Source: Bacillota bacterium (GTDB taxonomy: Bacteria > Bacillota > Dethiobacteria > DTU022 > UBA8154). Taken from it: a stretch of 64,000 nucleotides of DNA. The notes beneath the pieces are model-generated. The model did no database searches, had not been told where the DNA came from, and saw nothing but the letters and a program-made list of their open reading frames with translations. This document shows positions 2,307-64,000 of this stretch, one piece after another. Made by a program: the position numbers and the translations under genes. How positions within the stretch are numbered: the first letter of the stretch is position 1; each line of letters begins with the position of its first letter. The stretch lies in NCBI GenBank assembly GCA_012728375.1, contig JAAYFF010000025.1:13741-77740 (forward strand), in the 5' to 3' direction.

Positions 2307-2359
2307 AAAAGAAATATTTATAATATGTGTTAAATATTTTAACGAGGTTTAATTGCGCA

Positions 2360-4294: not shown

Positions 4295-4330
4295 TTTCAC
4301 CATTTTGAACAAAGGGAGAACTTCTCTTGT

Positions 4331-4523: not shown

Positions 4524-4673
4524 TTCTCGCCAAAGCCGGAAATCAAGACGCTTATCAAGGCTTAAAAGGGAAGAGGAGGCATTATTTTTCAGTAAAAGAT
4601 GGGGTTAGGTTTTTGCATCTATAAAAAAATAGAAGGGAGGAAGTCCCGAAAGTGAACGCTTTCGGGGAAACAA

Positions 4674-5855: not shown

Positions 5856-5908
5856 GCTCTTGTATATTTTAATCATATAAATAAAAGTATTTGAGAGGAG
5901 GAAATTTT

Positions 5909-6793: not shown

Positions 6794-6906
6794 GTGCGGG
6801 TATAACGCGATACGCGAAAAACTTAAATTTTGAAAAATGCTGTTTTTGCAGGCTTGAGCCGGCGGCCAAGCTTTCAGAAAGGGCGAAAAAAAAAGGAGGT
6901 TATTTT

Positions 6907-8061: not shown

Positions 8062-8094
8062 AAGGCGAGAATTGTTATAAACTATTTCTAAAAG

Positions 8095-8153
8095 TATGGG
8101 GAAGGGGGAAAGGGAATTATCCCTTCCTCCATCCCCATTTTTTGTTACTTAGA
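8095..8153 (+). terminator. Long imperfect GC-rich hairpin followed by TTTTTTG (possible attenuator/terminator between bcd and crt)
   Basis: ATGGGGAAGGGGGAAAGGGAAttaTCCCTTCCTCCATCCCCAT, then tttttg. Confidence 0.35.
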
Positions 8154-8177
8154 CTTTAAAAAAGAGGAGGTATGGAG

Positions 8178-8957
8178 ATGTACCAGTTTATTAAATATGA
8201 AAAAGAAGCGCCTCTGGCGATTATTACCGTTAATCGCCCGGAAGTCATGAATGCTATGAATAATGCCCTTGTGGAAGAGTTTGCCCAGGCCTTTAAAGAA
8301 GCGGAAAATGACGATGAAGTAAGAGCGCTGATTATAACCGGGGAAGGCAACAAGGCTTTCATGGCCGGTGCGGATATCAAGGAAGTACAGGCTAGAGACT
8401 TTGTTCTGGGGCGCAAACAGACCCGCAGGCGCCAGGAAGTATTAAACATGCTGTATGAAATGCCCAAGCCCGTAATCGCCGCTATTAACGGATTTGCCCT
8501 CGGGGCCGGCTTGGAGACGGCACTGGCCTGCACACTGCGCATTGCCTCTACCAACGCCAAACTGGGCGCTCCGGAAGTAAACCTGGGGATTATTCCCGGC
8601 GACGGTGCCACCCAGCGTCTTCCGAGAATGATTGGCTTTGGCCGTGCAATGGAGATGGTTTTAACGGCGCGTATGGTGGATGCCGAAGAGGCCTACCGCA
8701 TCGGGCTGGTAAACAAGGTGGTGCCCCAGGAAGAATTAATGGAAGAAGCTAAAAAAATGGCCGGCAGCATTATCAACAAATCGCCTCTGGCCATCCAGTA
8801 CGCCAAGGAAGCAGTCAACCGCTCCATGGAAATGGGTCTTTATGAAGGAATGGCCCATGAGTCTTACCTCCACGCCCTGGCCTGTGCCACGGAGGATAAG
8901 AAAGAAGGAGTTGCCGCATTCCTGGAGAAGCGTAAAGCCCAGTATCAAGGGAAATAA
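8178..8957 (+). CDS. crt: Enoyl-CoA hydratase (crotonase family)
   Basis: The crotonase fold is recognisable (LAIITVNRPEVMNAMN, FMAGADIKE, ING-A-GAGLETALACTLRIA). RBS GAGGAGG at 8164-8170 favours ATG 8178 over 8172. Confidence 0.9.
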   Translation: MYQFIKYEKEAPLAIITVNRPEVMNAMNNALVEEFAQAFKEAENDDEVRALIITGEGNKAFMAGADIKEVQARDFVLGRKQTRRRQEVLNMLYEMPKPVIAAINGFALGAGLETALACTLRIASTNAKLGAPEVNLGIIPGDGATQRLPRMIGFGRAMEMVLTARMVDAEEAYRIGLVNKVVPQEELMEEAKKMAGSIINKSPLAIQYAKEAVNRSMEMGLYEGMAHESYLHALACATEDKKEGVAAFLEKRKAQYQGK

Positions 8958-17684: not shown

Positions 17685-19013
17685 ATGAGTGAAAGGACTT
17701 TTGTAGGGGGGATCCATCCCGGTTACTTTAAAGAGAGCACTTCCGGGATACCTATTGCTCCCGCCAAGGCTCCTTCACAGGTGATTATACCGCTCCAGCA
17801 GAATATTGGGGCTCCCTGTGAAGCTATTGTCAAGGTGGGGGATGAGGTAAAAATGGGGCAAAAGATTGGTGAACCAAAAGGTTTTGTTTCCGCTCCTATT
17901 CATGCCAGCGTTTCAGGGAAAGTGTCCAAAATTGAGCCTTTCAACCACCCGATGGGTACTCAGGTCCTTGCCGTTTTTATCGAAAATGACGGCCAGGATA
18001 CACCTGACGAGGGTATGAAGCCTAATAAATCCCTGGAGGAACTAACGCCTGAAGAAATTAAAGCAATTTCTAAAGAGGCCGGGCTGGTAGGTATGGGTGG
18101 TGCAACATTTCCTACCCACGTAAAGTTGTCGCCGCCACCGGAAATTCAAATTGATACCGTAATTATTAATGGTGCGGAATGCGAACCTTTTCTTACGGCA
18201 GACCACCGGCTCATGTTAGAAAGGGCGGATGATATTGTCTTTGGTTTGCAGGCATTTATGAAGGCTTTGGGGGCTACCAGGGGGATAATCGGTATTGAGG
18301 ACAATAAGCCCGATGCTATCAGCAGTGTCAGGAAAGCTGTGGCCGAGAGCAGCGGGGATTATAATATTGAAGTCCATCCCTTGCACACCAAGTATCCCCA
18401 GGGCGCTGAAAAAATGCTTATTAAAGCGACAACGGGGAGAGAAGTGCCGCCGGGTGCCCTTCCGATGGCTGTTAACGTGGTTAATCAGAATACCGGGACC
18501 GCTATTGCCATGGCGGAAGCTATTAAACTCGGTAAGCCTCTCTATGAGAGGGTGGTAACAGTTACCGGGCCGGGCATCAAGAAGCCGGGCAATTTGCTGG
18601 TTAGAAACGGAACTCTGATCCGGGATATCATCGAGCAATGCGGCGGCCTGACCAGCGATGCGCGCAAGCTGGTTTTGGGCGGGCCCATGATGGGATTAGC
18701 CCAGCCAACCGATGAAATTCCGGCCATTAAAGGGACCTCAGGCGTGCTTGTTCTGACCGAAGAGTTTGTGAAGGAGCAGCCTATCGCTTCGTGCATTAAA
18801 TGTGGAAAATGCGTGGAAGTTTGTCCTATGAACCTTCTCCCCAGCTTTATCGGAGCGGCATCGGAGAAAAAAGTTTATGATTTGGCCGAAAAATATGGTG
18901 CGATGGATTGTTTTGAATGCGGATGCTGCACATATACCTGTCCTGCCAAGAGACCTCTGGTTCAGTGGATCCGGATCGCCAAAGGCGCTATTGCGGCCAG
19001 CAGGAAAAAGTAG
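17685..19013 (+). CDS. rnfC: Rnf electron-transport complex subunit C
   Basis: MSERTFVGGIHP..., NADH-binding region, and two C-terminal 4Fe-4S motifs (CIKCGKCVEVCP, CFECGCCTYTCP). Confidence 0.9.
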   Translation: MSERTFVGGIHPGYFKESTSGIPIAPAKAPSQVIIPLQQNIGAPCEAIVKVGDEVKMGQKIGEPKGFVSAPIHASVSGKVSKIEPFNHPMGTQVLAVFIENDGQDTPDEGMKPNKSLEELTPEEIKAISKEAGLVGMGGATFPTHVKLSPPPEIQIDTVIINGAECEPFLTADHRLMLERADDIVFGLQAFMKALGATRGIIGIEDNKPDAISSVRKAVAESSGDYNIEVHPLHTKYPQGAEKMLIKATTGREVPPGALPMAVNVVNQNTGTAIAMAEAIKLGKPLYERVVTVTGPGIKKPGNLLVRNGTLIRDIIEQCGGLTSDARKLVLGGPMMGLAQPTDEIPAIKGTSGVLVLTEEFVKEQPIASCIKCGKCVEVCPMNLLPSFIGAASEKKVYDLAEKYGAMDCFECGCCTYTCPAKRPLVQWIRIAKGAIAASRKK

Positions 19014-19038
19014 CACGTTATGAAGGAGGGATAAATTA

Positions 19039-19968
19039 ATGGATAGAAAGCTGGTAGTCTCTTCGTCCCCGCACATCAAATCACCGGAAACTATTCGGAG
19101 CATCATGATCGATGTTCTGGTTGCTCTTTTCCCCGTAGCTTTGATGGCTGTTTTTCTCTTTGGTTTTCGTGCCCTGGCAACGATGATTATTGCCATGGTA
19201 GCGGCTATGGCTACAGAAGCAATTATTTTACGTAGAAAAAACCTTTTCGGTGACGGCAGTGCGGCGGTTACAGGTTTGCTCCTGGCGATGACTCTTCCGC
19301 CGGCCCCGCCCTGGTGGGTAGTGGTCATCGGTTCTGTCGTTGCCATTGGCGTTGGAAAACATATTTATGGAGGTTTAGGTAACAATATTTTTAACCCGGC
19401 CCTGGTAGGGCGGGCGGTACTGTTTGTCTCCTGGAGTACTCATGTCGCCGGAAATGTCTGGATTAAGCCGGTCCCCTTCGGTTTTACAGCGGATGCGGTA
19501 ACCCAGGCATCTCCCCTGGTCACATACGATGCTTCCCTGGGAGACCTTTTTATAGGTACTGTGAGCGGTGCGTTAGGTGAAACATCGGCCCTGGCCCTGA
19601 TTATCGGAGCCATATGGCTGTTTTACCGCGGCCATATTGACTGGCGGATCCCGGGAAGCTTTATTGGGATCGTGTTTATCCTGGGCCTTTTCGACGGAGG
19701 CCTTTACATGGGGCTTTACCACGTCCTGGCGGGCGGCGTGATGCTCGGCGCTTTGTTTATGGCAACGGATATGGTTACTTCTCCGGTTACACCGGCAGGG
19801 AAACTTATTTTTGGCCTGGGGTGCGGGATCGTTACTATGGCAATCCGTATGTTCGGTGGAATGCCTGAGGGTGTAACCTTTGGGATTCTTCTTATGAATG
19901 GTCTTACCCCCCTTATCGATAACATGACTTTGCCTAAGAAGTTCGGGGAGGTGAAGAAGAGTGCGTGA
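19039..19968 (+). CDS. rnfD: Rnf complex subunit D
   Basis: Polytopic membrane protein, NqrB/RnfD family. The FMN-attachment threonine context (TGATPL-like ...VTQASPL) is present. Confidence 0.9.
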   Translation: MDRKLVVSSSPHIKSPETIRSIMIDVLVALFPVALMAVFLFGFRALATMIIAMVAAMATEAIILRRKNLFGDGSAAVTGLLLAMTLPPAPPWWVVVIGSVVAIGVGKHIYGGLGNNIFNPALVGRAVLFVSWSTHVAGNVWIKPVPFGFTADAVTQASPLVTYDASLGDLFIGTVSGALGETSALALIIGAIWLFYRGHIDWRIPGSFIGIVFILGLFDGGLYMGLYHVLAGGVMLGALFMATDMVTSPVTPAGKLIFGLGCGIVTMAIRMFGGMPEGVTFGILLMNGLTPLIDNMTLPKKFGEVKKSA

Positions 19969-20494
19969 GAGCGGACTGCGCATGGCTTTAACGCTATTGA
20001 TCATCGGTGCAATCTGCGGAGGGCTTCTTTCCATGGTAAACGGGTTTACTGCCCCTGTTATCGAGGAGAGGGCAATGACCGAGTTTCTGCAGGCATTGGA
20101 AGGGTTCTTTCCTGAGGTTGAGGATTATGAAGCGCAAGAAATCGGAGATGAAGTATTTTATTACTGTACAGACAACAGCGGCAACTTCATCGGTGTAGTG
20201 GGACAGGTCAAGGCAGACGGCTATGGAGGAAAAATTTCCTACGATTTAGCTGTCAATAACAGCGGTGATATTATTGGGATGCGGATCAGCTCCCACGGCG
20301 AAACCCCCGGTATCGGCGATGTCATTACAAGGGAAGAATTTCAAAGCCGCGTTATTGGCTTAAACTATGCCGATCCCATTTCTCCCGGCGTTGATGTAGA
20401 TACCGTTTCGGGTGCCACAATTTCCACCGGTGGGATGCTCAGCTCCATTCGCCGGGTGATGGATATTATTGGCGAGAACTTTATGACAAATTAG
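19961..20494 (+). CDS. rnfG: Rnf complex subunit G (FMN-binding)
   Basis: N-terminal TM, then an FMN_bind domain ending TVSGATIST (the flavinylated-Thr motif S/TGAT). GTG start overlaps the rnfD stop. Confidence 0.9.
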   Translation: MRESGLRMALTLLIIGAICGGLLSMVNGFTAPVIEERAMTEFLQALEGFFPEVEDYEAQEIGDEVFYYCTDNSGNFIGVVGQVKADGYGGKISYDLAVNNSGDIIGMRISSHGETPGIGDVITREEFQSRVIGLNYADPISPGVDVDTVSGATISTGGMLSSIRRVMDIIGENFMTN

Positions 20495-20524
20495 GACAGA
20501 TAATCACATTGGAGGTGAAAATAG

Positions 20525-21127
20525 ATGAGTACACTGGCTCAGGAGTTCAGTAAGGGGCTTTTAAAAGAAAACCCTACTTTTCGCCTTTTGTTGGGGATGT
20601 GTCCGACCCTTGCCATTACCACGTCGGCATTTTTCGGGTTTGGTATGGGCGTTTCCGTCTTTTTTGTTCTGCTGTGTTCCAATATTGTTATCTCTGTTAT
20701 ACGGAATTTTGTCCCCGACAAGGTTAGAATGCCGGCTTACATTCTTGTTATCGCTACATTCGTGACCATTACAGATATGGTTCTTAATGCTTTTGTCCCG
20801 GAGCTGCACAAAGCTTTGGGGATCTTTATCCCCCTCATTGTGGTGAACTGCATTATTATGGGTCGGGCGGAAGCCTTTGCCCGTAAGAATAATGTTATCC
20901 GTTCTATCTTAGATGCCCTCGGAATGGGCGTCGGAGTCACAATGTCCCTGACTCTCGTTGGAATTATCCGGGAACTGTTCGGTGCAGGAAGCATTTTTGG
21001 TTACAATATTATGGGTACGGCATTTGAACCCATGGGGGTGCTGGCCACCCCGCCCGGTGCGTTTATTACCCTGGGCATCCTGCTTGGATTGTTCAACTAT
21101 GCTTTTAAACGCCTGGGTATCGAATAG
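20525..21127 (+). CDS. rnfE: Rnf complex subunit E
   Basis: RnfE/NqrD family membrane protein, 200 aa. Confidence 0.9.
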   Translation: MSTLAQEFSKGLLKENPTFRLLLGMCPTLAITTSAFFGFGMGVSVFFVLLCSNIVISVIRNFVPDKVRMPAYILVIATFVTITDMVLNAFVPELHKALGIFIPLIVVNCIIMGRAEAFARKNNVIRSILDALGMGVGVTMSLTLVGIIRELFGAGSIFGYNIMGTAFEPMGVLATPPGAFITLGILLGLFNYAFKRLGIE

Positions 21128-21148
21128 GAGAGTAAAGGAGGTCTAAAG

Positions 21149-21727
21149 ATGCATCTGCTGGCGATTATTTTCGTGGCGATTTTGTCAAATAATATTGTTT
21201 TAAGCCAGTTCCTGGGTATTTGTCCGTACTTGGGCGTCACCAAGCGGATTGATACATCTGTAGGGATGGGAATGGCTGTTATTTTTGTCATGACCATGGC
21301 GGCTATTGTAACGTGGGTGCTCGATCTTTTTCTTCTGCAGCCATTTGGCTTGGAATTTCTGCGGACTATTGCTTTCATCCTGGTTATCGCCGGTTTGGTC
21401 CAGCTGGTGGAAATGATCCTGAAAAAGACCAACCCTGCTCTTTTCCGGGCGTTGGGGATTTATCTGCCCCTTATTACCACCAACTGTACTATCCTTGGTG
21501 TAGCGCTGCTCAATGTTCAGTCCGGGCATAATATTATTGAAACTGTTGTTTACTCGATTGCTACGGGGATTGGATTTACGCTGGCCATGGTTATTATGGC
21601 GGGTATACGGGAGAGGCTTGAACTGGTCAATATGTCAAACTATTTAAAAGGAGCCGCAGTGACACTGGTTTCCGCCGGGATCCTCTCCTTGGCTTTTATG
21701 GGCTTTAAAGGAATGGTAACACTTTAA
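21149..21727 (+). CDS. rnfA: Rnf complex subunit A
   Basis: RnfA/NqrE family membrane protein, 192 aa. Confidence 0.9.
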   Translation: MHLLAIIFVAILSNNIVLSQFLGICPYLGVTKRIDTSVGMGMAVIFVMTMAAIVTWVLDLFLLQPFGLEFLRTIAFILVIAGLVQLVEMILKKTNPALFRALGIYLPLITTNCTILGVALLNVQSGHNIIETVVYSIATGIGFTLAMVIMAGIRERLELVNMSNYLKGAAVTLVSAGILSLAFMGFKGMVTL

Positions 21728-21745
21728 CCTGGAGGTGAAAGAATA

Positions 21746-22561
21746 GTGGATCTGACCATGTCCATAGTTATTATCGGCGGGCTGGGGGTGCTTTTCGGCG
21801 GATTGCTTGCTTATGCTGCCAAGCGGTTTGCCGTAGAAGAAGATCCCAGGGTTGAAGTAGTAACGGATCTTCTTCCCGGTGCCAACTGCGGTGCCTGCGG
21901 CCTTGCCGGCTGCAGCAGCGCAGCCGAAAAAATCGTTGCCGGCGAAATACCGGTGGATAGTTGCATCCCCGGCGGGAAAAAAGTTGCCGATAGTATTTGT
22001 GAGGTTTTGGGAATTGAGTCTGTTGCCTCGGGAGGCAGAAAAGTTGCCGAAATTCATTGCCTGGGCACCAAAGATGTTGCTCCCGATAAATTTGATTACC
22101 AGGGTGTCAGGGATTGCAAGGCCGCAATGATGTACAGCGGTGGTTTTAAAGCCTGTGCTTACGGATGCCTGGGCCTCGGTACCTGCGTGGAGGCCTGCCC
22201 CTTTGAAGCTCTTTCCATGGGCGCAAACGGGCTGCCGCAGGTTGATACGGAAAAATGTACCGGCTGCGGTGTTTGTGCCAAAGCCTGTCCGCGGAATGTT
22301 ATTCATATTGAACTTGCTGACAGGAAAGCAAAATATATCCCCTGCAATTCAAAAGCCAGCGGCAAAGTTGTCCGTCAGGCCTGTGAAGTGGGATGTATCG
22401 GCTGCAGGGCGTGTGTCAAGGCCTGTCCGAATGAGGCTGTTACCGTGGAGAATAACCTGGCAGTCATAAATAGAGAAAAATGCACTGACTGCGGAAAATG
22501 CGTGGAGGCCTGCAAGCGCGGCATTATTAAAGACGTGGGCACGGTTCTCGTTTTGAAATAA
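21746..22561 (+). CDS. rnfB: Rnf complex subunit B (polyferredoxin)
   Basis: N-terminal TM, then multiple CxxCxxCxxxCP motifs. GTG start with GGAGGTG RBS. Confidence 0.9.
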   Translation: MDLTMSIVIIGGLGVLFGGLLAYAAKRFAVEEDPRVEVVTDLLPGANCGACGLAGCSSAAEKIVAGEIPVDSCIPGGKKVADSICEVLGIESVASGGRKVAEIHCLGTKDVAPDKFDYQGVRDCKAAMMYSGGFKACAYGCLGLGTCVEACPFEALSMGANGLPQVDTEKCTGCGVCAKACPRNVIHIELADRKAKYIPCNSKASGKVVRQACEVGCIGCRACVKACPNEAVTVENNLAVINREKCTDCGKCVEACKRGIIKDVGTVLVLK

Positions 22562-22602
22562 AATATAATTAATACATTATTATTTAAGTTTCATAAACGG
22601 TT

Positions 22603-22630
22603 AAAACGGCAAGGGAAACCTTGCCGTTTT
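22603..22630 (+). terminator. Rho-independent terminator AAAACGGCAAGG-GAAA-CCTTGCCGTTTT after rnfB
   Basis: Perfect stem with a GAAA tetraloop, followed by a U-tract. Confidence 0.65.
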
Positions 22631-22726
22631 CCGGTCCTTTGGGAAATATATTTGTCATATAAAAGAGTAAAAGGAGGGAAGCGGCATTTTTCCCATAGAC
22701 TTGTCGGCGGAAAATGCCAAAAGAAG

Positions 22727-23224
22727 TTGGATGAAAAGAATTTTACCCATTTTAATATCCAGGGCCGCGGGCGGATGGTCGATGTTACGGAAAAAAGCAT
22801 TACTGTTCGGGAGGCCCGGGCACAGGGGAAAATCCGCATGCATAAAAATACCCTGCAAAAGATTAAGGAAGGAACAATGGCCAAGGGAGATGTGCTGGGG
22901 GTGGCTCAGGTAGCAGGCGTTCTCGGAGCCAAACAAACGCCGTCATTAATTCCCATGTGTCATCCGCTGTTCATTACAGGAGTGGATCTTCACTTTTCTT
23001 TTGAAGATGAACGGACGCTGGTAATTGATGCTACTGTAAAAACCAGCGGACAAACCGGTGTGGAAATGGAAGCACTGACAGCGGTAAGTATTGCCGCGCT
23101 GACTGTTTATGATATGTGCAAAGCTGTGGATAGGGACATGGAAATTTTGCAAATACGTTTGATGGAAAAAAAAGGCGGTAAAAGCGGCCATTATATTCGA
23201 AGTGAGGCAAAATCTGAAGGATAG
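22727..23224 (+). CDS. moaC: Cyclic pyranopterin monophosphate synthase MoaC
   Basis: ...FTHFNIQGRGRMVDVTEK...MCHPL...TGVEMEALTAVSIAALTVYDMCKAV is the conserved MoaC core. A TTG at 22727 gives an N-terminus that aligns with known MoaC. The track ORF starts at 22652 (TTG), so the start is uncertain. Confidence 0.8.
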   Translation: MDEKNFTHFNIQGRGRMVDVTEKSITVREARAQGKIRMHKNTLQKIKEGTMAKGDVLGVAQVAGVLGAKQTPSLIPMCHPLFITGVDLHFSFEDERTLVIDATVKTSGQTGVEMEALTAVSIAALTVYDMCKAVDRDMEILQIRLMEKKGGKSGHYIRSEAKSEG

Positions 23225-23487
23225 TATTAATAAATAGTCGATATAGCAAGGATTCTGAAGGTTTGAAATGCCTGTTATTACCCGGGAAATTTTCTTGCTT
23301 AACCCCTTTAAAAATGATAGTATTTGTAGAAAGAAAGTAACTGCTTCGCAGTCCAATCGATAATCTGTCATTGCCGCGAGACGGTTCCATCGTCTATAAA
23401 CTTTTTAGACTGAGCAGTTACAAAAAATGAATTAATTGTTAAAACATTACTGAAAACGTCGAACTAAGAAAGGAGCCATCCGGGCAG

Positions 23488-24558
23488 GTGAAAAGATCAA
23501 AGCAGAGAAAAAGGCACGTACAGGTACTGATGATCTTGTGTATCTGTTTGCTCTTTTCTGCTTTGGGTTGCAGACCCGGCAATCCTGACGATGACAAGAC
23601 AACAATAACCCGTTTGCTAATGGATACCCGGGTTGACCTGACCCTGTATGGAATTGACAAGAAAACTTCTGAACGCATTGCCGGTGAGGTATTTGCCGAA
23701 ATGGAACGGTTGGAAAGCATTCTTAGCCGGACAGTTGCGGCAAGCGATCTTGACCGAGTTAACCGGGCAGCAGGCGAGGAGTGGGTTGATGTAAGCCCGG
23801 AACTTTTTTTCGTCCTCAGCAAAGCACTGGAATTTGCCGAACTGTCGGGAGGGGCCTTTGACCCCACAGTTGCCCCCCTCTTAGAACTCTGGGGATTTGG
23901 GACAGCTCATCCCAGGGTGCCTTCCGGAGAGGAGCTGCAAAAGGTTCTTCCCCTGATTGATTACCGACTGGTTGAGCTGGACGAAGACCGGTCAGCGGTT
24001 TTTCTGCCCCTTAAAGGGATGAAGCTTGATTTAGGCGGGATTGCTAAAGGTTTTATTATTGACCGGGGTATAGAGGTAGTCCGGAAATTTGATGTTCAGG
24101 CTTCTTTTCTCAATGCCGGCGGCGATATACGCATATATGGGGAAAAACCCTCCGGCGAGAGGTGGACGGTTGGTATACAAGACCCCAATGTTAACGGGAA
24201 GGGTTCAGATAGAACCTATATTGCCGCCCTCCGGCTGGAGGGGGAGGGCAGCGTCGTTACTTCGGGCGATTATCAGCGATTTTTTAAAAAAAACGGGAAA
24301 AAATATCATCACATTTTAAATCCTGCAGATGGAAAGCCGGCGCGTCAGTTAACAAGCGTTACCATTGTTGCAGGCGATGCCCTGACGGCAGACGCCCTGT
24401 CAACCGCTGTTTTCGTTTTGGGAAGGGAAAAGGGCCTGTCTTTGCTCAAACATTTTCCCGGGGTAGATGGTGTGATTGTTGACCAAGAGGGCAAAGTGCA
24501 TTATTCACCCGGCTTGGAGGATAAAATACAGTTAAATGCCCAGCAGACGGGGAGATAG
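23488..24558 (+). CDS. apbE: FAD:protein FMN transferase ApbE (lipoprotein)
   Basis: Lipobox LFSALGC. The ApbE family pattern is present (TRLLMDTRVDLTLY, DLGGIAKG, SGDYQRFF). GTG start with AGGAG RBS. Confidence 0.85.
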   Translation: MKRSKQRKRHVQVLMILCICLLFSALGCRPGNPDDDKTTITRLLMDTRVDLTLYGIDKKTSERIAGEVFAEMERLESILSRTVAASDLDRVNRAAGEEWVDVSPELFFVLSKALEFAELSGGAFDPTVAPLLELWGFGTAHPRVPSGEELQKVLPLIDYRLVELDEDRSAVFLPLKGMKLDLGGIAKGFIIDRGIEVVRKFDVQASFLNAGGDIRIYGEKPSGERWTVGIQDPNVNGKGSDRTYIAALRLEGEGSVVTSGDYQRFFKKNGKKYHHILNPADGKPARQLTSVTIVAGDALTADALSTAVFVLGREKGLSLLKHFPGVDGVIVDQEGKVHYSPGLEDKIQLNAQQTGR

Positions 24559-50293: not shown

Positions 50294-50620
50294 ATGGATG
50301 GAAAACCCATTGACATCGGAGACAGCCAATTTTCAGATGAAGTTTTAAATGTGGATTCACCTGTTCTGGTAGATTTTTGGGCTTCGTGGTGCGGGCCGTG
50401 CCGTATGGTAGCGCCGGTACTGGAAGAGGTTGCCAAGGATTACCAAGGCAAACTAAAGGTTGTCAAAGTAAACGTAGATGATAATAGCGAGACGGCTTCA
50501 CGCTACGGAATTATGAGTATTCCCACGATGATGCTTTTTAAAAATGGAAAACCGGTGGAAACAATTGTCGGTTTTCGCAAGAAAGAGGAACTCAGCGATA
50601 TTATTGACAAGAATCTGTAA
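50294..50620 (+). CDS. trxA: Thioredoxin
   Basis: WCGPC active site. 108 aa. Confidence 0.9.
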   Translation: MDGKPIDIGDSQFSDEVLNVDSPVLVDFWASWCGPCRMVAPVLEEVAKDYQGKLKVVKVNVDDNSETASRYGIMSIPTMMLFKNGKPVETIVGFRKKEELSDIIDKNL

Positions 50621-50681
50621 TAAAAGGAGCCGTATACGGAACCCCTTTTACCGGGATAATAGGGTAAAGGGGGATTTTATT

Positions 50682-51524
50682 TTGCGAGCGATGTGGAAGG
50701 GTTCCCTCAGTTTTGGCTTGGTCAATATTCCTGTGCGCCTTTTTGCCGCCACAGAGAATAAGGGCTTGAAATTCAGGTATTTGCATCTTCCCTGTCACAG
50801 CCCGGTAGAATACAAAAGGGTCTGCCCCGTCTGCGGAAAAGAGGTGCCATGGGAAGAGCTCGCCCGCGGCTTTGAATATGAAAAAGGGGCTTTTGTTATT
50901 TTGGATGAGCAGGAATTTAAAGCTGCTGCCGGAGAAAGCGAGCACCTCATCGAAATTCAAGATTTTGTCCGGATCGAAGAAATCGATCCTGTTTATTTTC
51001 AAAGTACCTACTATCTCTCTCCCGACGGGACCGGCCGGAAACCATACGCCCTTTTGCGCAAGGCCATGGAAGATACGGGCAAGGTCGCGGTAGCCGGGAT
51101 TACCATACGAACAAAAAAGACACCTGCTGTGGTAAGGGTTTACAGGGATATTCTTGCTCTGTCAACCATGTTTTTTCCCGATGAGGTGAGGAATACCCGA
51201 GAACTTCCGGACATTCCGGGAGAGGAAACAATTCGTGACAGGGAATTGGAGATGGCCAGAGACCTCATTGAAAATCTGGCAACTCCTTTTGTTCTGGAAA
51301 AATTTCATGATACATACCGGGAAAAACTTTTGGAGATAATTGATGCCAAGATCAAAGGCAAAAAGATTGCCGTAGCACCATCGCCCGAAAGGGAAAAGGT
51401 CGTAGATTTGTTGGAAGCACTTCAGGCCAGCGTGGAAAAAGTGCGGGAAAAAAAGAGCAAAGAAACGGCAGCTCAGGAGGGGAAACCCCCGAAGGAAAAA
51501 GTAACAACAACATCCCGGCGGTGA
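50682..51524 (+). CDS. ku: Non-homologous end joining protein Ku
   Basis: MRAMWKGSLSFGLVNIPVRLF is the canonical Ku N-terminus. TTG 50682 with AAAGGGGGA RBS. The track start 50544 is rejected. Confidence 0.85.
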   Translation: MRAMWKGSLSFGLVNIPVRLFAATENKGLKFRYLHLPCHSPVEYKRVCPVCGKEVPWEELARGFEYEKGAFVILDEQEFKAAAGESEHLIEIQDFVRIEEIDPVYFQSTYYLSPDGTGRKPYALLRKAMEDTGKVAVAGITIRTKKTPAVVRVYRDILALSTMFFPDEVRNTRELPDIPGEETIRDRELEMARDLIENLATPFVLEKFHDTYREKLLEIIDAKIKGKKIAVAPSPEREKVVDLLEALQASVEKVREKKSKETAAQEGKPPKEKVTTTSRR

Positions 51525-51554
51525 TCGTTTATCTTTAAAAAATATATTATTCCT

Positions 51555-52442
51555 ATGGAGCCGCAGGCCAGCCGGATTTTGCCCCAGGAGCCGTCCTGCG
51601 TTTACCAGGTTAAATGGGACGGAATGAGGCTGCTGGCATACTGGGACGGAGTTAAGCTTTTGCTCCAGGGGAAAAGCCTTAAAGATAAAACAGCATCTTA
51701 TCCGGAACTGGCCGTATTGCCGGAGCTGGTAAAAGGGCAAAGTTTTCTGCTCGATGGGGAGTTGATTTCTTTAAAAGGGGGAAAGCCCTGTTTTTTTACT
51801 CTCATGCAGCGGGAAAACAGTTCCCCCTTTTCCCGCATACCTGTTTACTACATGGTATTCGACCTACTGCTGTTGGACGGCACTTGGCTGCTGGAAAGGC
51901 CCTGGGAAGCCCGGCAGGAATTGCTGCAAAACTCCTTGGAAAAACACGACCTCGTTTCCGTAACAAAAAATTATGCAGACGGGAAAAATTTGCTGGAAGC
52001 GGTTGCTGAAAGGGGAATGGAAGGGGTAGTCACCAAAAAAAGGGGGACTCCCTATGTTCCCGGTCCCCGCAAATCAAGTTACTGGATAAAAACCAAACTG
52101 CAGCAGACCCTGGAAGCCTGCGTCGGAGGAATATACTTAAAAGGGAAAAAACCGATTTCTTTGCTTCTGGGGGTGGAAGAAAACAGCGGCGGTGACGGAG
52201 CGGGAAAAGTTCGCTACATAGGAAGTGTAAGCAGCGGCCTGACAGAAACAGAACTTGATTTATGGCTCCAATGGGGGCTGGAAAACTCTTCAGATTACCC
52301 TCTTTTTTTTAATCCTCCTCCCAAACAACCGGGAAGAAATATTTTATGGGTAAAACCCGTCCGGAGGGTGCAGGTGCTTTTCAGCGAGTGGACCCCGGGT
52401 TTAAAACTGCGCTCTCCCCGCATAAAACATTGTCCTGCTTAG
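51555..52442 (+). CDS. ligD: ATP-dependent DNA ligase, LigD ligase-domain-only protein
   Basis: Motif I KWDGMR (adenylated Lys). 295 aa. No polymerase or phosphoesterase domain. Confidence 0.8.
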   Translation: MEPQASRILPQEPSCVYQVKWDGMRLLAYWDGVKLLLQGKSLKDKTASYPELAVLPELVKGQSFLLDGELISLKGGKPCFFTLMQRENSSPFSRIPVYYMVFDLLLLDGTWLLERPWEARQELLQNSLEKHDLVSVTKNYADGKNLLEAVAERGMEGVVTKKRGTPYVPGPRKSSYWIKTKLQQTLEACVGGIYLKGKKPISLLLGVEENSGGDGAGKVRYIGSVSSGLTETELDLWLQWGLENSSDYPLFFNPPPKQPGRNILWVKPVRRVQVLFSEWTPGLKLRSPRIKHCPA

Positions 52443-52458
52443 TAAGGAGCAATCTTCA

Positions 52459-53343
52459 ATGACCTCTTTGCTGGAAACAAGAGGGAAGAAAATAACGCTT
52501 ACCAATTTAAAAAAAGAGCTTTGGCCGGGCGAAGGGATTACTAAATATCACCTGATCAAATATTATCTGGAAGTATCCGCCTTTATGCTGCCCCACTTAG
52601 AAAACCGCTTTTTAGTTATTCAGCGCTTTCCTGAAGGAATCCACCGGCCGGGTTTTTTTCAAAAAAATATCCCCGAAGGAGCCCCGTCCTGGTTAAAAAC
52701 AGCTGTTTTTCAGGGCAGTGAAAAAGAAACCCGCTATCTGCTGTGCAGTGATCCTGAAACTCTGGCCTGGCTTGGGAATCAGGCCTGCCTGGAAATCCAT
52801 CCCTGGCTTTCATCCAGACACACTCCGGAAAAACCTGATTATGCTGTTTTTGATTTGGATCCCCCGCAGGGAGTTTCTTTCAGAAAGGTGTGTTTGGTTG
52901 CCCTGGTTTTGCATAAAATATTAAAAAAGAAAGGGCTTAAAGCCTATCCGAAAACTTCAGGTTCACGTGGGATACAGGTTTATCTTCCTTTAAAGCCTGT
53001 CTATTCCTATGAGCAGGTTAGAGACTTTACTGCCGCTGTTTTTAAAATTGTAGAAAACGAGCTTCCGGATATAACAACCACAGAAAGGAAAGTTTCCATG
53101 CGGGGGGGAAAAATTTATCTCGATCATCTGCAGAACGCCCGGGGAAAAACCCTTGTTGCGCCTTACTCGCCCCGGCCGTTGAAAGGGGCCCCTGTTTCAG
53201 CTCCACTGTTATGGGAGGAGCTTACTAACCCATCTCTTATACCTTCCTCATTTACCATTCACACCATTCTTCCCCGCCTTCGCTCAAGGGGTGAATTGTT
53301 TGCCCCGGTTCTTCATGACCGTCAGGAGATACCGAAAAAATAA
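52459..53343 (+). CDS. NHEJ polymerase/primase, LigD polymerase-domain-only protein
   Basis: The pattern is LigD Pol-domain-like (…VFDLDPP…, YSPRP). 294 aa. AAGGAG RBS. Confidence 0.8.
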   Translation: MTSLLETRGKKITLTNLKKELWPGEGITKYHLIKYYLEVSAFMLPHLENRFLVIQRFPEGIHRPGFFQKNIPEGAPSWLKTAVFQGSEKETRYLLCSDPETLAWLGNQACLEIHPWLSSRHTPEKPDYAVFDLDPPQGVSFRKVCLVALVLHKILKKKGLKAYPKTSGSRGIQVYLPLKPVYSYEQVRDFTAAVFKIVENELPDITTTERKVSMRGGKIYLDHLQNARGKTLVAPYSPRPLKGAPVSAPLLWEELTNPSLIPSSFTIHTILPRLRSRGELFAPVLHDRQEIPKK

Positions 53344-58468: not shown

Positions 58469-60949
58469 ATGTTTATGTTCGGAAGGTTTACTGAAAGGGC
58501 GCAACAGGTTTTGGTGTTGGCCCAGGAGGAAGCAAAAAGGTTAAATCATAACTTTATCGGAACAGAACATATTCTCCTGGGACTTATCCGGGAGGGTTCA
58601 GGTATCGCCTCCAGGGCTTTGCAAAATATGGGCATTGAGTCGTCCCGGATCCGTTCCGAGATAGAGAAAATTACAGGTAAAGGTGATAAAGGTATTATTC
58701 AAGGGATCAGCTATACACCCAGGGCAAAAAAAGTAATCGAACTGGCCATCGAAGAAGGACAAAATTTTGGGCATAATTATGTAGGAACCGAACATCTCCT
58801 GCTGGGCCTCCTGCGGGAGGGAGAAGGGATTGCCGCCCAGGTGCTGACCAATATGGGTATTGACTTAAAGAAGACCAGGCGGGAGGTGATTCAGCTCCTC
58901 GGAGGTGAACCGCAAATTGGAGGGGGACCTGTAGGAAAAAACGTTCCCCAAACCCCCACAGTTGATGCCTTTGGGCGCGACCTTACCAAACTGGGCAAGG
59001 AAGGAAAACTGGACCCTGTTGTCGGCCGCGATCAGGAAATAGAAAGGGTAATCCAGATCTTAAGCCGCCGGACGAAGAATAACCCGGTTTTAATAGGGGA
59101 ACCGGGGGTCGGAAAGACGGCGATTGTTGAAGGGCTGGCCCAGAGAATAACCGAGGGCAACGTTCCTGATATCCTGCTGGAAAAAAGAGTGGTTACCCTG
59201 GAGCTGGCTGCAGTTGTGGCCGGAACAAAGTATCGGGGTGAATTTGAAGAGCGCCTGCGCAAATTAATGGTTGAGCTTCAGCAGGCCGGAAATGTAATTA
59301 TTTTTATTGACGAGCTGCATACCATTATCGGGGCCGGTGCAGCCGAGGGAGCGATTGACGCCTCCAATATCCTTAAACCGGCCCTGGCCAAAGGGGAACT
59401 TCAAGCGATTGGGGCGACCACCCTGGATGAATACAGGAAATATATTGAAAGGGACCCTGCACTGGAGAGGCGTTTCCAGCCCATAGTCGTAGGGGAACCT
59501 TCTGTAGAAGAGAGTTTGGAGATTCTCAAAGGGCTGCGCGATCGCTACGAAGCTCATCACCGGGTTAAAATTACCGATGAAGCTCTGGAAGCTGCAGTAA
59601 AGCTGGCCGACCGGTATATACAAGACCGTTTTTTGCCGGATAAAGCAATTGACCTCGTTGACGAAGCGGCTTCCAGGGTCAGGCTCCGCAATTATACAGC
59701 GCCTCCTGATTTGAAGGAGATGGAGGAAAAATTGGAAAATATACGGCAAGAAAAAGAGGCCGCGGTCCGGAGCCAGGATTTTGAGCATGCAGCCCAGCTG
59801 CGGGATAAAGAACAGCAGTTTAAAGCCAGGCTGATGGAGCTGAAGAAAGAATGGGAACAAAAAAAGGTTGTTTCCGATCAAGCGGTTGTAACTGAGGATG
59901 ACATTTCGCATATTGTTTCCAGCTGGACCGGAATTCCGGTGAAAAAACTGGCTGAAGAAGAGTCGGAGCGCCTGCTTCGCATGGAGGAAATTTTACACCA
60001 GCGCGTTATTGGTCAGCATGAAGCGGTGCAGGCTGTCTCCCGGGCAATCCGGCGCGGCAGGGCGGGTCTGAAAGACCCCAAGCGGCCGATAGGCTCCTTT
60101 ATTTTCCTGGGTCCCACCGGAGTGGGTAAGACAGAGCTGGCCCGCAGTCTGGCCGAGGCGATTTTCGGTGATGAGGATGCCATGATTCGTTTGGATATGT
60201 CCGAGTATATGGAAAAGCATACCACTGCCCGCTTAATCGGAGCGCCCCCGGGATATGTGGGGTACGAAGAAGGAGGTCAACTGACCGAAAAAGTGCGGCG
60301 CAAACCCTACAGCGTCATCCTGCTGGATGAAATTGAAAAAGCCCACCCCGATGTTTTTAACATCCTGCTGCAAATTTTGGAAGACGGCCGTTTGACGGAC
60401 GGAAAGGGGCGGACGGTAAACTTCCGCAATGCAGTGATCATTATGACTTCCAACGTTGGGGCAAACCTTATCAAAAAACAGCCGACAATGGGCTTTCAGC
60501 CGGACGATGTGGAAAAAAGCTATGAAGACATGAAGGGCAGACTGCTGGAGGAACTAAAAAGGACTTTTCGCCCTGAATTTCTAAACAGGGTTGACGATCT
60601 CATTGTCTTTAAACCCCTGACTAAAGAAGAAATTGCTCAGATTGTGGACCTGATGCTCGCCGATCTTTCCAAGCGTATTGCCGATTACGGCTTACAGCTT
60701 GACGTATCCGCAGAGGCTAAGGAGCTTCTGGCGCGGGAGGGGTTTGACCCCACCTATGGTGCCCGCCCCTTAAGGCGTGTAATCCAAAAAAGGCTGGAAG
60801 ACGGAATTTCCGAGGAGTTGTTGAGAGGAACGTTTACAGCCGGCGATACAATCAGCGTGGAGAAAGAAAAAGAAGAAGAGAAGCTGGCTTTTATTAAAAA
60901 AGGTGCGAAAAAGGAAGAACCTGCAACAAACTCTCCTGAAACAGCATAA
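58469..60949 (+). CDS. clpC: ATP-dependent Clp protease ATP-binding subunit ClpC
   Basis: [15 protein letters not shown]. Two Clp_N repeats, two AAA+ modules ([16 protein letters not shown]), and a UVR motif in the linker. 826 aa. Confidence 0.95.
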
Positions 60950-60960: not shown

Positions 60961-60993
60961 CCCTTTAAGATCCCGCAAGGGGTCTTTTTTTTT
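60961..60993 (+). terminator. Rho-independent terminator AAGATCCC-GCAA-GGGGTCTT + T9
   Basis: 8-bp stem with one G.U wobble, a GNRA loop, and then TTTTTTTTT. Confidence 0.7.
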
Positions 60994-61088
60994 AAAAAAA
61001 CCGGTGCAGGAATAAAAATGACCCGTAGCGAAATAGCTACCAAAACAAAATCCTGTGAACTTATTTTCAGGTTAGGAGGCTGGCGCTG

Positions 61089-63302
61089 ATGCCCATCTGT
61101 CGGGCAGGAAAGAATAAATGGGAAAATTCTTTTGACAAAATATATGAATGGGTAATAGAATGTTCCCGGCCTCCTCTGGCGCTTTTTCAAAAAGCCTATA
61201 ACGGCGTTGTTGCCGCTATCTGCTCTGCTAAGTACGAGCTTCGCCGATCGCTCTTAACCTTTGGGCAGGATTATCCCGTCAGCTTCCCTGAAACGGATTA
61301 TTATTTACCTGTCATAAGGAGTTTAAGCGGTGAAAAAGTGACCAGGCTGGGTGAACTGGCTCCCATCTTAGACCGTGTCCGAAGCCGGATAAAAAAAGAG
61401 CTAAACTTCGGTAACGCACTTCTTTGTGGGGAGGCTACCGCTTATGCCGAGGAAATTGTGGAAGCTCTCCGCTGCCTAAATGGCAGGGATGCCCGGACCG
61501 GTGTTGGAGCGCGTTTCCCCGGCGACTCTCTTTTGCGCAGCTGTGGGATTCTTCTGGCCGATTGGAGCATTCCCGGTCAAGCTATCCTGATGGGCAAGGC
61601 GAAGTCAGCCGAATTATTGCAGAAGGTGGTTGCTGACCTGCAGGCTAAAGGCTTCCTTATTTTCCTGGCCGGCGAGGTGGCAGAACAGGCTGTTGAAGCC
61701 GGAATTAAGCTGGGCGAAGATTATCTGACCTTTGCCCTGGGCGGATTAACAGGTGCGGTTCACGCTCTGGGCTTTGCTCTGCGGGTCGGGCTTGCTTTCG
61801 GCGGGATTGCACCGGGAGCAAGGGATGAACAGCGCGATTACCAGTGGCGCAGGATCAGGGCCTTTGTCCTGCATTTCGGCCAAAGGGATGATCTATGTGT
61901 GGCCAATCACTTTGCCGCTATTTTTCTCGGGTTCCCTGTCCTGGCAGATCACAAACTTCCCGGGGACGAACAGATTCCTGACTGGTACATTTCACATCCC
62001 TATTATGATACTCTTATCCGCAAGGCTATGGAAGTGCGGGGGATTAAACTTAAAATTGCCCATATTCCCGTCCCCTTTGCCGTTTCTTACGCCTTTGAAG
62101 GGGAAGCGATCCGGGAGGAAGAGATGTACCTGGAGCTCGGAGGCAGCCGCGCACCTTTCTTCGAATTGGTGACAATGGTTGACGAAAGCGGGATCGAGGA
62201 CGGCAAAGCGGAGGTGATTGGCCCTGATGTGGACAGGGTTGAGGAAGGGGTAACCTTAGGCGGCGGCATCTGCGTAAAGGTTTACGGCCGCAGGATGCAG
62301 AAAGACTTTGAAGCGGTGATCGAGCGGCGCATCCATGAGTTTATCAATTGGGGCCAAGGCCTCCGGCATGAAGGGCAGCGCGATGCCTGCCGCTACCGGG
62401 TCAGCAGGGATTGCGTAGCCAGGGGCTTTAAATTCCGCCACTACGGGGAACTTCTCATTGCCAGGATCAAAGAGGTTTTTTCGGAGATTGTTGATCGCGT
62501 TCAGGTAACCGTTTATACTGATCCCAAAGCTGCAAAGGAAAAACTTGAAGAGGCAAGGGGGATTTACGCCGCGCGGGACGCCAGGCTGGCAGGACTCACC
62601 GATGAATCGGTGGAGGTTTTTTATTCCTGTGCCATCTGTCAGTCTCTTGCTCCCAACCATATCTGCATTATTACACCGGAACGCCCCGGACTTTGCGGTG
62701 CTGTAAGCTGGCTGGACGCCAAAGTTTCCTTTGAGCTCAACCCCGCGGGCCCCCACCGTTTGATCGGGAAACAAGGGCTGATTGACGCAGAAAAAGGAAT
62801 CTGGAAAAGTATAAACGATTTTGTCTTTCAAAATAGTAATGGTACTGTTAAAACCTGTTCCTTGTATTCCTTTCTCGATCATCCCACGACCTCCTGCGGA
62901 TTTTTTGAGTGCATTACGGGGATTGTGCCCGAAGCCAACGGCGTGATGATTACCACGAGGGAGCACCGGGGAATGACCCCCTGCGGGATGGATTTTTCCA
63001 CCCTGGCCGGTTTTGTGGGCAATGGCGTCCAGACCCCGGGCTTTATGGGGCATGGCAAGGACTATATTTTAAGTAAAAAATTTATCAGGGCAGACGGGGG
63101 ATTGGCCCGTGTCGTCTGGATGCCCTGTGAACTTAAAGGCCGCCTGGGTGACGGCCTGCGCAGAGCTGCCGTATCCCAGGGCCTGGGGACCGGTTTTGTT
63201 GATAAGATTGCCGATGAGGCTGTCGGTGCAACCGTTGCGGAAATCCTGCCTTTTTTAAAGGAGAAAGGTCATCCCGCGCTGAGAATGAAGCCTTTAATAT
63301 AA
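61089..63302 (+). CDS. acsB: CO-methylating acetyl-CoA synthase catalytic subunit (ACS, A-cluster protein)
   Basis: The whole 737 aa is colinear with Moorella-type AcsB (…ETDYYLPVIRSLSG…, FYSCAICQSLAPNHICIITPERPGLCGAVSWLDAK, …TSCG…, GHPALRMKPLI). AGGAGG RBS is 9 nt upstream. Confidence 0.9.
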   Translation: MPICRAGKNKWENSFDKIYEWVIECSRPPLALFQKAYNGVVAAICSAKYELRRSLLTFGQDYPVSFPETDYYLPVIRSLSGEKVTRLGELAPILDRVRSRIKKELNFGNALLCGEATAYAEEIVEALRCLNGRDARTGVGARFPGDSLLRSCGILLADWSIPGQAILMGKAKSAELLQKVVADLQAKGFLIFLAGEVAEQAVEAGIKLGEDYLTFALGGLTGAVHALGFALRVGLAFGGIAPGARDEQRDYQWRRIRAFVLHFGQRDDLCVANHFAAIFLGFPVLADHKLPGDEQIPDWYISHPYYDTLIRKAMEVRGIKLKIAHIPVPFAVSYAFEGEAIREEEMYLELGGSRAPFFELVTMVDESGIEDGKAEVIGPDVDRVEEGVTLGGGICVKVYGRRMQKDFEAVIERRIHEFINWGQGLRHEGQRDACRYRVSRDCVARGFKFRHYGELLIARIKEVFSEIVDRVQVTVYTDPKAAKEKLEEARGIYAARDARLAGLTDESVEVFYSCAICQSLAPNHICIITPERPGLCGAVSWLDAKVSFELNPAGPHRLIGKQGLIDAEKGIWKSINDFVFQNSNGTVKTCSLYSFLDHPTTSCGFFECITGIVPEANGVMITTREHRGMTPCGMDFSTLAGFVGNGVQTPGFMGHGKDYILSKKFIRADGGLARVVWMPCELKGRLGDGLRRAAVSQGLGTGFVDKIADEAVGATVAEILPFLKEKGHPALRMKPLI

Positions 63303-63321: not shown

Positions 63322-64000
63322 ATGGCTTTAACAGGATTGGATATTTTCAAGCTTCTGCCCAAGACCAACTGTAAAAAGTGCGGCTATCTTACCTGCCTTG
63401 CCTTTGCGATGGCTTTGGCAAACGGCAAGTCTTCTGTTGACGCCTGCCCGGAGCTTTCAGCGGAGGCGAGGGAAACGCTTTCTTCCGCTGCTGAACCCCC
63501 CATCAGATCGGTTAACATCGGCAGCGGGGAAAAGATTGTGAAAGTGGGCGGCGAAACGGAGCTTTTCCGCCATGATAAGCGCTTTAACCATCCTGTGGCG
63601 ATCGCTGTTGCTGTCAACGATAACGAAGATGTGGAGGCAAAGATAGATAAAATTAACAGCCTTTCCTTTGAGCGGGTCGGCCAGCATTATGAAGTAGATA
63701 TGGTTGCCCTTATGAACACCTCCGGCGATGCTGCCGTTTTTAAAGAAGCAGCTGTGAAGGCCGCGGCCGGGACGGATAAAAACTTTATCCTGGTTACCCG
63801 TGACACCTTAGCCATGGAAGCAGCCCTCCAGGTTCTCGGCCCTCGAAAACCGCTTCTTTATGCGGCAGATGGGGATAATTATGCGGAGATGACCGAACTG
63901 GCCAAAGCGCATGGTTGTGCCCTCGCCGTGAGAGCCGGGGACCTTCATGCCCTTGCCGAACTGACGGCAAAGGTTATTGCCCTGGGATACCGTGAATTGG
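63322..64000 (+). CDS. acsC: Corrinoid iron-sulfur protein large subunit (CFeSP gamma), 3' end outside window
   Basis: MALTGLDIFKLLPKTNCKKCGYLTCLAFAMALANGK is the N-terminal 4Fe-4S motif of AcsC. The ORF is open to the end of the window. Confidence 0.85.
   Translation, partial: MALTGLDIFKLLPKTNCKKCGYLTCLAFAMALANGKSSVDACPELSAEARETLSSAAEPPIRSVNIGSGEKIVKVGGETELFRHDKRFNHPVAIAVAVNDNEDVEAKIDKINSLSFERVGQHYEVDMVALMNTSGDAAVFKEAAVKAAAGTDKNFILVTRDTLAMEAALQVLGPRKPLLYAADGDNYAEMTELAKAHGCALAVRAGDLHALAELTAKVIALGYREL

Follow-up and report, generated by a model that had tools for sequence, protein, structure and literature searches.

The Wood-Ljungdahl pathway (WLP) has acetyl-CoA synthase (ACS; AcsB in bacteria) as its signature enzyme, and acsB serves as a marker gene for acetogens and for syntrophic acetate oxidisers. 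In canonical enzymes Cys597 bridges both nickels of the A-cluster, the proximal (Ni_p) and the distal one (Ni_d). This cysteine is a key Ni_d ligand (PMC8910529), Phe512 is an alcove or gate residue (PMC11321310, PMC12289521), and F229, I146, F512, V149 and G145 form a CO alcove that is highly conserved in WLP bacteria (PMC11321310). In the ACS of Clostridium autoethanogenum, Trp405, which lies six positions past Gly399, provides the stacking surface for the acetyl-CoA adenine (bioRxiv 10.1101/2024.08.05.606187). Here we describe an acsB gene, hereafter acsB*, found in a stretch of 64,000 nucleotides (the window) of a Bacillota bacterium (contig JAAYFF010000025.1, positions 13,741 to 77,740). 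It encodes an AcsB in which Cys597 is replaced by Phe and which probably no longer makes acetyl-CoA. Residues of canonical enzymes are given in Moorella numbering, and positions of features are collected in Table 1.

An ACS can also occur without its usual partner. The incomplete WLP of Dehalococcoides has ACS and the corrinoid iron-sulfur protein (CFeSP) but no carbon monoxide dehydrogenase (CODH), and passes the methyl group to a MesB/core-MetE methionine synthase (PMC7005905, PMC7857596). Acetyl-CoA cleavage without CODH has been reported in D. mccartyi (PMC7005905).

The product of acsB* is a full-length member of the family. It has the three Pfam domains of the enzymes of Moorella thermoacetica (1MJG/1OAO) and Carboxydothermus hydrogenoformans (1RU3/7ZKJ), i.e., CODH_A_N, CdhC and ACS_CODH_B_C (PF18537, PF03598 and PF19436), and is colinear with them at about 60% identity. 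With phmmer it matched the Moorella ACS (1mjg_M/1oao_C) over residues 14-736 (E ~1e-276), and it scored 909 bits with the NCBIfam equivalog NF040764 (cut-off 800). Like these bacterial enzymes, it retains the four [4Fe-4S] cysteines (Moorella C506/C509/C518/C528, here C514/C517/C526/C536, all kept across clade members) and Cys595 (here Cys603), and its gene lies in an operon with acsC, acsD, acsE, metV and metF. Unlike them, it has Phe at position 597, Leu at 512, Ala at 149 and Arg at both Trp427 and Trp418. It also lacks adjacent acsA and cooC, has lost 32% of the near-invariant positions and, measured against its neighbours, evolved at roughly three times the rate.

The codons of the Ni-site segment are TGC GGA TTT TTT GAG TGC, in frame with the open reading frame (ORF) of acsB*. 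In the phmmer alignment TSCGFFEC of AcsB* pairs with TSCGCFEA of Moorella, which sets Phe605 opposite Cys597, so that the Cys-Gly-Cys tripeptide of positions 595-597 is replaced by C-G-F. We compared the variants with a reference set of 130 canonical close relatives. Position 597 was Cys in 130/130 of these and Phe in all six variant-clade sequences examined, with C-G-F in the window protein and in clusters P0002 and P0122, and C-R-F in P0006, P0013 and P0124. A second change in the active site turned CQSFAPNH into CQSLAPNH (Phe512 to Leu520), and Leu occupies this position in all four variant lineages that we compared. An earlier reading of the sequence alone (the sequence-only reading) had reported a Cys-Gly-Phe motif in a protein otherwise colinear with AcsB and with its four cluster cysteines intact, while allowing that the motif might have been misplaced. 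Both the reading and the placement held in the frame and in the alignments; the change at Phe512 had escaped the sequence-only reading.

The sequence-only reading had offered three explanations for the missing cysteine. The first, a sequencing or assembly error, has in its favour that TGT and TTT are a single G-to-T change apart and that the codon is inside a T6 homopolymer (62901-62906). Yet contigs from four separate samples (ERZ27280784, ERZ773358, SRR3499604 and SRR3184677) encoded the identical protein with the same TTT codon, their acsB* genes differing by at most one nucleotide. A relative with 87% identity from another run (ERR10905743) had C-G-F with TTT, and two relatives at 67-68% identity had AGG/AGA-TTT, i.e., C-R-F. 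The codon is also accompanied by dozens of further clade-specific substitutions. Homopolymer errors are typically indels, which would break the frame. Since the same TTT recurs in four independent assemblies of one population and in three lineages that have diverged from it (87%, 68% and 67%), an error has practically no chance of being the cause, and we rule it out. The C597F substitution is real, inherited, and fixed in the clade.

The second explanation was that Cys608, three residues past the lost Cys597, took over as Ni ligand and that the enzyme works normally. The alignment contradicts this, and we found it highly improbable. The equivalent of Cys608 is Cys in 88 of the 130 canonical relatives, which have CGC, and Ala in the crystallised Moorella enzyme. 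Hence, Cys608 is a background feature, neither new nor a ligand, and does not compensate for the loss. No new Cys or His was fixed in the variant clade in the alignment with the canonical relatives.

The third explanation, a catalytically altered paralog, came closest to the truth in its first half, but the gene is not a paralog of the spare-copy kind. All variant loci with enough flank have the order ctsR-mcsA-mcsB-clpC / acsB*-acsC-acsD-acsE-metV(DUF5981)-metF-HD-TPR-M23(-)-pyrB, with acsC, acsD and acsE directly 3' of acsB*; the full-length acsC of locus L001 matches PF04060 and PF03599. The nearest canonical relative is cluster P0003, 68% identical, whose members are labelled Dethiobacteria and whose locus L016 is on a 3.3 Mb contig (GCA_900198705.1). 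There the order is clpC, five ABC-transporter genes, cooC, acsA, acsB-acsC-acsD-acsE-metV-metF-HD-TPR-M23(-)-DUF3786-pyrB. The two loci are alike in having clpC upstream, an upstream element, and the genes from acsC to pyrB downstream. The canonical locus differs by having cooC and acsA (658 aa, Prismane domain) directly 5' of acsB, DUF3786 downstream, and CGC, F512 and W427 in its AcsB. Because the flanks match, acsB* is the operon's own acsB, the syntenic ortholog of the canonical gene and not a spare copy. In a neighbour-joining tree the variant clade was monophyletic and nested inside the canonical group.

Both acsA and cooC are absent from every variant locus and from the window. Searches with tblastn for remnants of cooC, acsA, DUF3786 and the ABC-transporter genes in the variant loci returned only noise. 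Neither the window nor the variant loci, about 10 kb of flanks included, yielded a CODH or CdhA/B-like gene, and Pfam scans of 30 window ORFs found neither CODH nor a MesB-type synthase. The upstream element was kept. In every variant lineage its core, GTGCAGGAATA.AA.T ... TAGCGAAA, is found some 85 nt upstream of acsB*, and in the canonical operon the same element precedes cooC by about 180 nt (L016, about 6958-6992). Across acsB* and canonical loci it takes the form GGTGCAGGAATAnAAnT-N6-8-TAGCGAAA. In the spacer between clpC and acsB*, it matched neither a sigma-70 consensus nor an Rfam family. It may be an operator, or else an atypical promoter, for the acs genes. Since the element is common to acsB* and the canonical cooC, the lineage kept the control region of the operon and lost its first two genes, cooC and acsA.

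The loss of Cys597 is one of many changes at conserved positions. We found 42 positions conserved in at least 95% of the canonical relatives and changed in three or all four of the variant lineages, including C597F, F512L, W427R/C, W418x and V149A/L, and the otherwise invariant Trp132 is also among the changed positions. The four variants together kept 249 of 364 near-invariant columns (68%), against 83-99% in control quartets of canonical sequences, and 27 columns were changed in all four, against none in the controls. The N-terminal domain was the most eroded, with 61% of the invariant positions kept, the other two keeping 68% and 77%. The rate of nonsynonymous substitution (dN) was raised in all three domains, which rules out a relaxation limited to the CODH-binding domain.

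Several of these changes fall on residues associated with CO or CoA. The position of Trp427 is occupied by Arg, Arg, Cys and Cys in the four variant lineages and by Trp in 129 of the 130 canonical relatives. We equated it with Trp405 of C. autoethanogenum because the spacing Gly421...Trp427 matches Gly399...Trp405. Trp427 is thus the probable CoA-stacking residue, mapped by spacing rather than by structural superposition, and AcsB* lacks it. Trp418, a CoA residue in older literature, was set aside in favour of Trp427: it is Met in canonical Dehalococcoidia AcsB, and we found no support for it in the literature searched. In the alcove, every clade member has A or L instead of V149 and L instead of F512, and keeps G145, I146 and F229. 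Of the four lineages, P0006 alone retains the tunnel residue Ala265, which is N, N and V in the other three. Another tunnel residue, Ala110, became Glu121 in the window lineage only (61449-61451), and is Ala in the 130 canonical relatives and the other variant lineages.

Comparisons across the operon place the acceleration in acsB*. AcsB was 67-70% identical within the variant clade and 84% in the canonical pair L016-L019, whereas the values were 77-81% and 71% for AcsC, 82-86% and 77% for AcsD, 82-87% and 75% for MetV, 80-83% and 89% for MetF, and 87-92% and 61.5% for the TPR protein. Within the variant clade AcsE was 85-88% and ClpC 93-96% identical, the latter with no value for the canonical pair. 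AcsB* is therefore the least conserved product of the operon in the variants, and AcsB among the most conserved in the canonical pair. The ratio dN(AcsB)/dN(AcsC) was 1.6-1.75 in the variants and 0.53 in the canonical pair, a roughly threefold relative acceleration, and root-to-tip distances in the neighbour-joining tree were 0.71-0.75 for variants and 0.40-0.52 for canonical sequences. The ratio of nonsynonymous to synonymous rates (omega, dN/dS) of acsB* within the clade was 0.17-0.24, at dS of 0.27-1.24, and that of acsC, acsD and acsE was 0.07-0.16. The reading frame of acsB* is intact in every variant lineage. Despite the acceleration, these intact frames and an omega far from 1 show that acsB* is under relaxed but real purifying selection, and rule out a pseudogene. 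The canonical relative P0027 (L021, 6632-8836) has CGC with Phe512 changed to Tyr, a long branch (root-to-tip distance 0.64) and a smaller share of the invariant positions; the control quartet to which it belongs keeps 83% of the near-invariant columns, and its acsB comes after CO_dh(CdhB-like)-POR-ferredoxin genes instead of acsA. It may represent an intermediate state of relaxation.

The strong acceleration and the many invariant residues lost would also be expected if acsB* were a functionless relic drifting to loss, made redundant by a functional ACS/CODH elsewhere in the genome. Such a second system exists in relatives: P0004 (L020) has, besides a bacterial acsB operon, an archaeal-type cdhA/B/C cluster that encodes a CdhC with the canonical site. 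In that locus (L020, 1-9937), a CdhA-like Prismane protein, CdhB, a 395-aa CdhC (CGC/F512), a CdhD-like protein and an 897-aa DUF166+Prismane fusion are followed by POR genes. The cdh and POR genes lie directly 5' of the acsB-acsC-acsD-acsE-metV operon, i.e., two ACS systems are adjacent. A relic of this kind remains improbable for acsB*, because at least four lineages, at dS distances of 0.3-1.2 from one another, have an unbroken ORF with the omega given above, all five remaining cluster cysteines are conserved, and CODH/Cdh genes are absent from the 64 kb and the ~10 kb flanks. Also against it stands a Dethiobacteria bin of DTU022 from a biogas reactor (R2.15, JAAZPQ01 sp012797175), which at 89.6% completeness has acsB, acsC, acsD, acsE and metF and no cooS (PMC11932165). 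The table for this bin has 'acsA' ticked and 'cooS' blank, where 'acsA' may denote an acetyl-CoA synthetase of the AMP-forming type. The bin is suggestive, in that it is consistent with a CODH-less acs lineage, its identity with the lineage of acsB* being unproven.

We regard it as probable that AcsB* is an AcsB with a degenerate Ni site that has stopped making acetyl-CoA and survives as an Fe-S protein with a link to the corrinoid protein. Its gene belongs to a Dethiobacteria-like lineage from anaerobic digesters, whose ancestral operon was (control element)-cooC-acsA-acsB-acsC-acsD-acsE-metV-metF. This lineage lost cooC (of the Ni-insertion ATPase type) and acsA (CODH) from the locus while retaining the control element, and in it the A-cluster Cys597 became Phe, with Phe512, Val149 and the probable CoA-stacking Trp427 going as well. 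Absent Cys597, neither the N2S2 site of the distal Ni nor the three-thiolate site of the proximal Ni is expected to form. With the bridging thiolate, the Ni-insertion ATPase and the CoA-stacking Trp all gone, AcsB* would, judging from its sequence, most likely no longer bind the Ni-Ni pair and neither make nor cleave acetyl-CoA. It would persist as an intact protein able to carry a [4Fe-4S] cluster. Because its gene adjoins those of a well-conserved corrinoid protein, methyltransferase and methylene-tetrahydrofolate (THF) reductase, the retained role probably needs no Ni and is connected with the corrinoid protein or with the methyl branch, e.g., in docking, scaffolding or electron transfer.

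Several observations weigh against this interpretation. AcsB* keeps Cys595, Cys509, Gly145, Ile146 and Phe229, and might hold a mononuclear or otherwise altered metal site. The corrinoid protein, AcsE and MetVF evolve under normal constraint, which would also fit a working methyl-transfer partnership. MesB-type methionine synthases give another reason to retain CFeSP (PMC7857596), and CFeSP and AcsE may indeed have been kept for reasons of their own, such as methyl donation to these synthases (PMC7857596, PMC7005905), although the window showed no mesB. The canonical CdhC of L020 shows that a relative has a second ACS, and our search for CODH or a second ACS spanned the window and the variant loci. 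Finally, there is the reported cleavage of acetyl-CoA without CODH in the Dehalococcoides-type incomplete WLP (PMC7005905).

The same facts can be read as signs of an enzyme whose metal site was remodelled, e.g., to a single Ni on Cys517(509) and Cys603(595), and which has stayed catalytic. By analogy with Dehalococcoides, such an enzyme would do without a dedicated CODH in cleaving or forming acetyl-CoA, or in taking over the corrinoid methyl group. Persisting purifying selection (omega ~0.2), the kept Cys595, Cys509, G145, I146 and F229, the adjacent and constrained CFeSP, AcsE and MetVF, and the D. mccartyi precedent are all compatible with it, as is a Dehalococcoidales clade without Cys597 whose gene cluster is apparently in active use (see below). 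We nevertheless consider a catalytic AcsB* unlikely. The missing Cys597 ligates both nickels and is present in every canonical relative, Trp427, Phe512 and Val149 are lost too, cooC is missing from the locus, and no substitute ligand has been fixed in the clade. Moreover, AcsB went from being among the most conserved products of the operon to being the least conserved.

The loss of the Ni cysteines is not restricted to the clade of acsB*. We surveyed the best 150 cluster representatives of the AcsB/CdhC family at 50% identity, of which 95 cover the Ni site. Around 40 of these 95 lack Cys595 and/or Cys597, whereas the four Fe-S cysteines were present in essentially all representatives. The flanking PMTS...FECI motif stays in register in the multiple alignment, and the absence of the cysteines is therefore not an alignment artefact. 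Phe512 was kept in 40 of 55 representatives with both cysteines and in 7 of 40 lacking a Ni cysteine (Fisher p=1e-7), and Trp427 in 29 of 39 and 7 of 37, respectively (p=1e-6), with the caveat for both tests that representatives are not phylogenetically independent. In the full-text literature that we searched, with incomplete coverage, naturally occurring ACS homologs without a Ni cysteine are not described.

We inspected five neighbourhoods of proteins without Ni cysteines, and none had a CODH alongside. P0155 (SGY) is encoded in fchA-folD-metF-(Pyr_redox_2)-AcsB-like, P0156 (CSY) in fchA-folD-metV-metF-AcsB-like-acsC, and P0166 (CGF) directly 5' of a fused metV-metF; P0170 (SGL) is an orphan with no C1 genes close by, and the neighbour genes of P0164 (CGR) carry no annotation. 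These five proteins resemble AcsB* in having the four Fe-S cysteines, in lacking Cys595 and/or Cys597, and in having mostly lost F512 and W427. They differ in being only 35-42% identical to it, in having lost the cysteines independently, and in contexts that range from methyl-branch operons to orphans. In loci L022 (5414-10154), L025 (4087-10677) and L023 (7173-11128), full-length AcsB-like genes without Ni cysteines directly adjoin metF, metV-metF or a metV-metF fusion, and two of the three loci also have fchA-folD upstream. This adjacency to methylene-THF reductase genes hints at a functional link.

A further case is found in a species-rich, uncultured Dehalococcoidales clade of the CdhC type, which has C-E-W in 16 clusters at 90% identity and S-E-W in one further cluster. 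The C-E-W clade has lost Trp427 and kept Phe512, while canonical Dehalococcoidia AcsB keeps both CGC and Trp427. Its genes lie within fhs-RACo-folD-acsD-ACS-acsC-(AcsE-like) clusters without CODH (L012, 4387-13489; L014, 4355-13582). The NCBI annotation of these homologs is 'hypothetical protein' for several and 'ACS complex subunit beta' for others. The lineage of acsB* thus resembles the incomplete WLP of Dehalococcoidales in combining an ACS homolog and CFeSP without CODH, and the uncultured clade in lacking Cys597 and Trp427. The Dehalococcoidales proteins differ by being CdhC-type (~417 aa), without the N-terminal domain, with Phe512, and encoded beside fhs, RACo and folD; the acsB* lineage, unlike those clusters, kept acsE and metVF. 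Ni-ligand loss in Dehalococcoidales and other lineages arose independently of that in the acsB* clade.

The remainder of the window includes systems with no direct relation to acsB*. A sigma-54 activator with a PrpR_N sensor is followed by genes for thiolase, 3-hydroxyacyl-CoA dehydrogenase, acyl-CoA dehydrogenase and enoyl-CoA hydratase (2327-8957), which looks like a regulated butyrate/beta-oxidation-type cluster. An Rnf cluster (17685-24558) starts with rnfC, confirmed by Pfam; the next five ORFs fit rnfDGEAB by size alone, and MoaC and ApbE come after them. With this cluster, ferredoxin:NAD+ energy coupling is probably available to the organism. A 962-aa subtilase on the minus strand (14332-17220) has Fn3-associated, CHB_HEX_C and type I dockerin domains; dockerin-bearing proteases are unusual outside cellulosome producers. 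Genes for non-homologous end joining, Ku and a split LigD (ligase and primase-polymerase), are encoded at 50544-53343, just 5' of a block with peptidase M24, MgtC and ctsR-clpC, and are kept in variant loci. A 265-aa antisense ORF (62256-63053, minus strand) lies wholly inside acsB* and is most likely a chance ORF.

Table 1. Window positions of acsB*, its altered and retained sites, and the adjacent features.
Feature	Position	Strand	Basis or remark
clpC, last gene of ctsR-mcsA-mcsB-clpC	58469..60949	+	Left border kept in variant and canonical lineages
Intrinsic-terminator-like hairpin and T-run closing the clpC transcript	60967..60993	+	Between clpC and acsB*
Conserved upstream element GGTGCAGGAATAAAAAT-N6-TAGCGAAATAGC	61003..61037	+	Common to the region upstream of canonical cooC
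acsB*, full-length 737-aa three-domain AcsB ortholog with degenerate Ni site	61089..63302	+	Pfam, NCBIfam and Moorella match
N-terminal helix segment Ile44-Glu50, five invariant residues replaced (T33, S34, Y35, I38, L39)	61218..61238	+	Alignment
Ala157 replacing gating-helix/alcove residue Val149	61557..61559	+	Alignment; PMC11321310, PMC12289521
Arg426 replacing Trp418	62364-62366	+	Alignment
Arg435 replacing Trp427, probable adenine-stacking Trp of the CoA site	62391..62393	+	Mapping by residue spacing
Intact [4Fe-4S] motif C514-x2-C517-x8-C526-x9-C536	62628..62696	+	Alignment to Moorella and relatives
Leu520 (CTT) replacing alcove/gate residue Phe512	62646-62648	+	Inside the [4Fe-4S] motif
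Degenerate Ni-binding segment Cys603-Gly604-Phe605-Phe606-Glu607-Cys608	62895..62912	+	Canonical: Cys595-Gly596-Cys597-Phe-Glu-Ala/Cys
Phe605 codon TTT replacing Ni_d/Ni_p ligand Cys597	62901..62903	+	TTT also in L001-L004, L015, L005 and L006
acsC, 5' part (corrinoid Fe-S protein large subunit), reaching the window end	63322..64000	+	N-terminal CX2CX4C...C motif

The gene acsB* clears every curated annotation threshold, with 909 bits, yet its product is without the residue that ligates both catalytic nickels. Annotation pipelines count it as a working carbon-fixation enzyme, which it probably no longer is. Given the missing Ni ligand and the disappearance of the CODH and Ni-insertion genes from the operon, genome-based statements that such Dethiobacteria-like bacteria of digesters have the pathway complete, or nearly so, would be wrong or at least unproven. 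More tentatively, AcsB/CdhC proteins with a [4Fe-4S] cluster but without the Ni ligands and the CoA-stacking Trp could form a widespread, repeatedly evolved and undescribed functional class, with a Ni-independent job beside the CFeSP and methyl-THF genes, e.g., as docking or redox partners of the corrinoid protein or of MetVF. If so, 'acsB present' calls would overstate the Wood-Ljungdahl capacity of many metagenome-assembled genomes, including those of putative syntrophic acetate oxidisers of biogas reactors. The recurrent pattern points to an unstudied Ni-independent role of the ACS scaffold, and proteins of the acsB* type are natural 'mutants' with which methyl transfer, CO handling and CoA binding in ACS may be separated.

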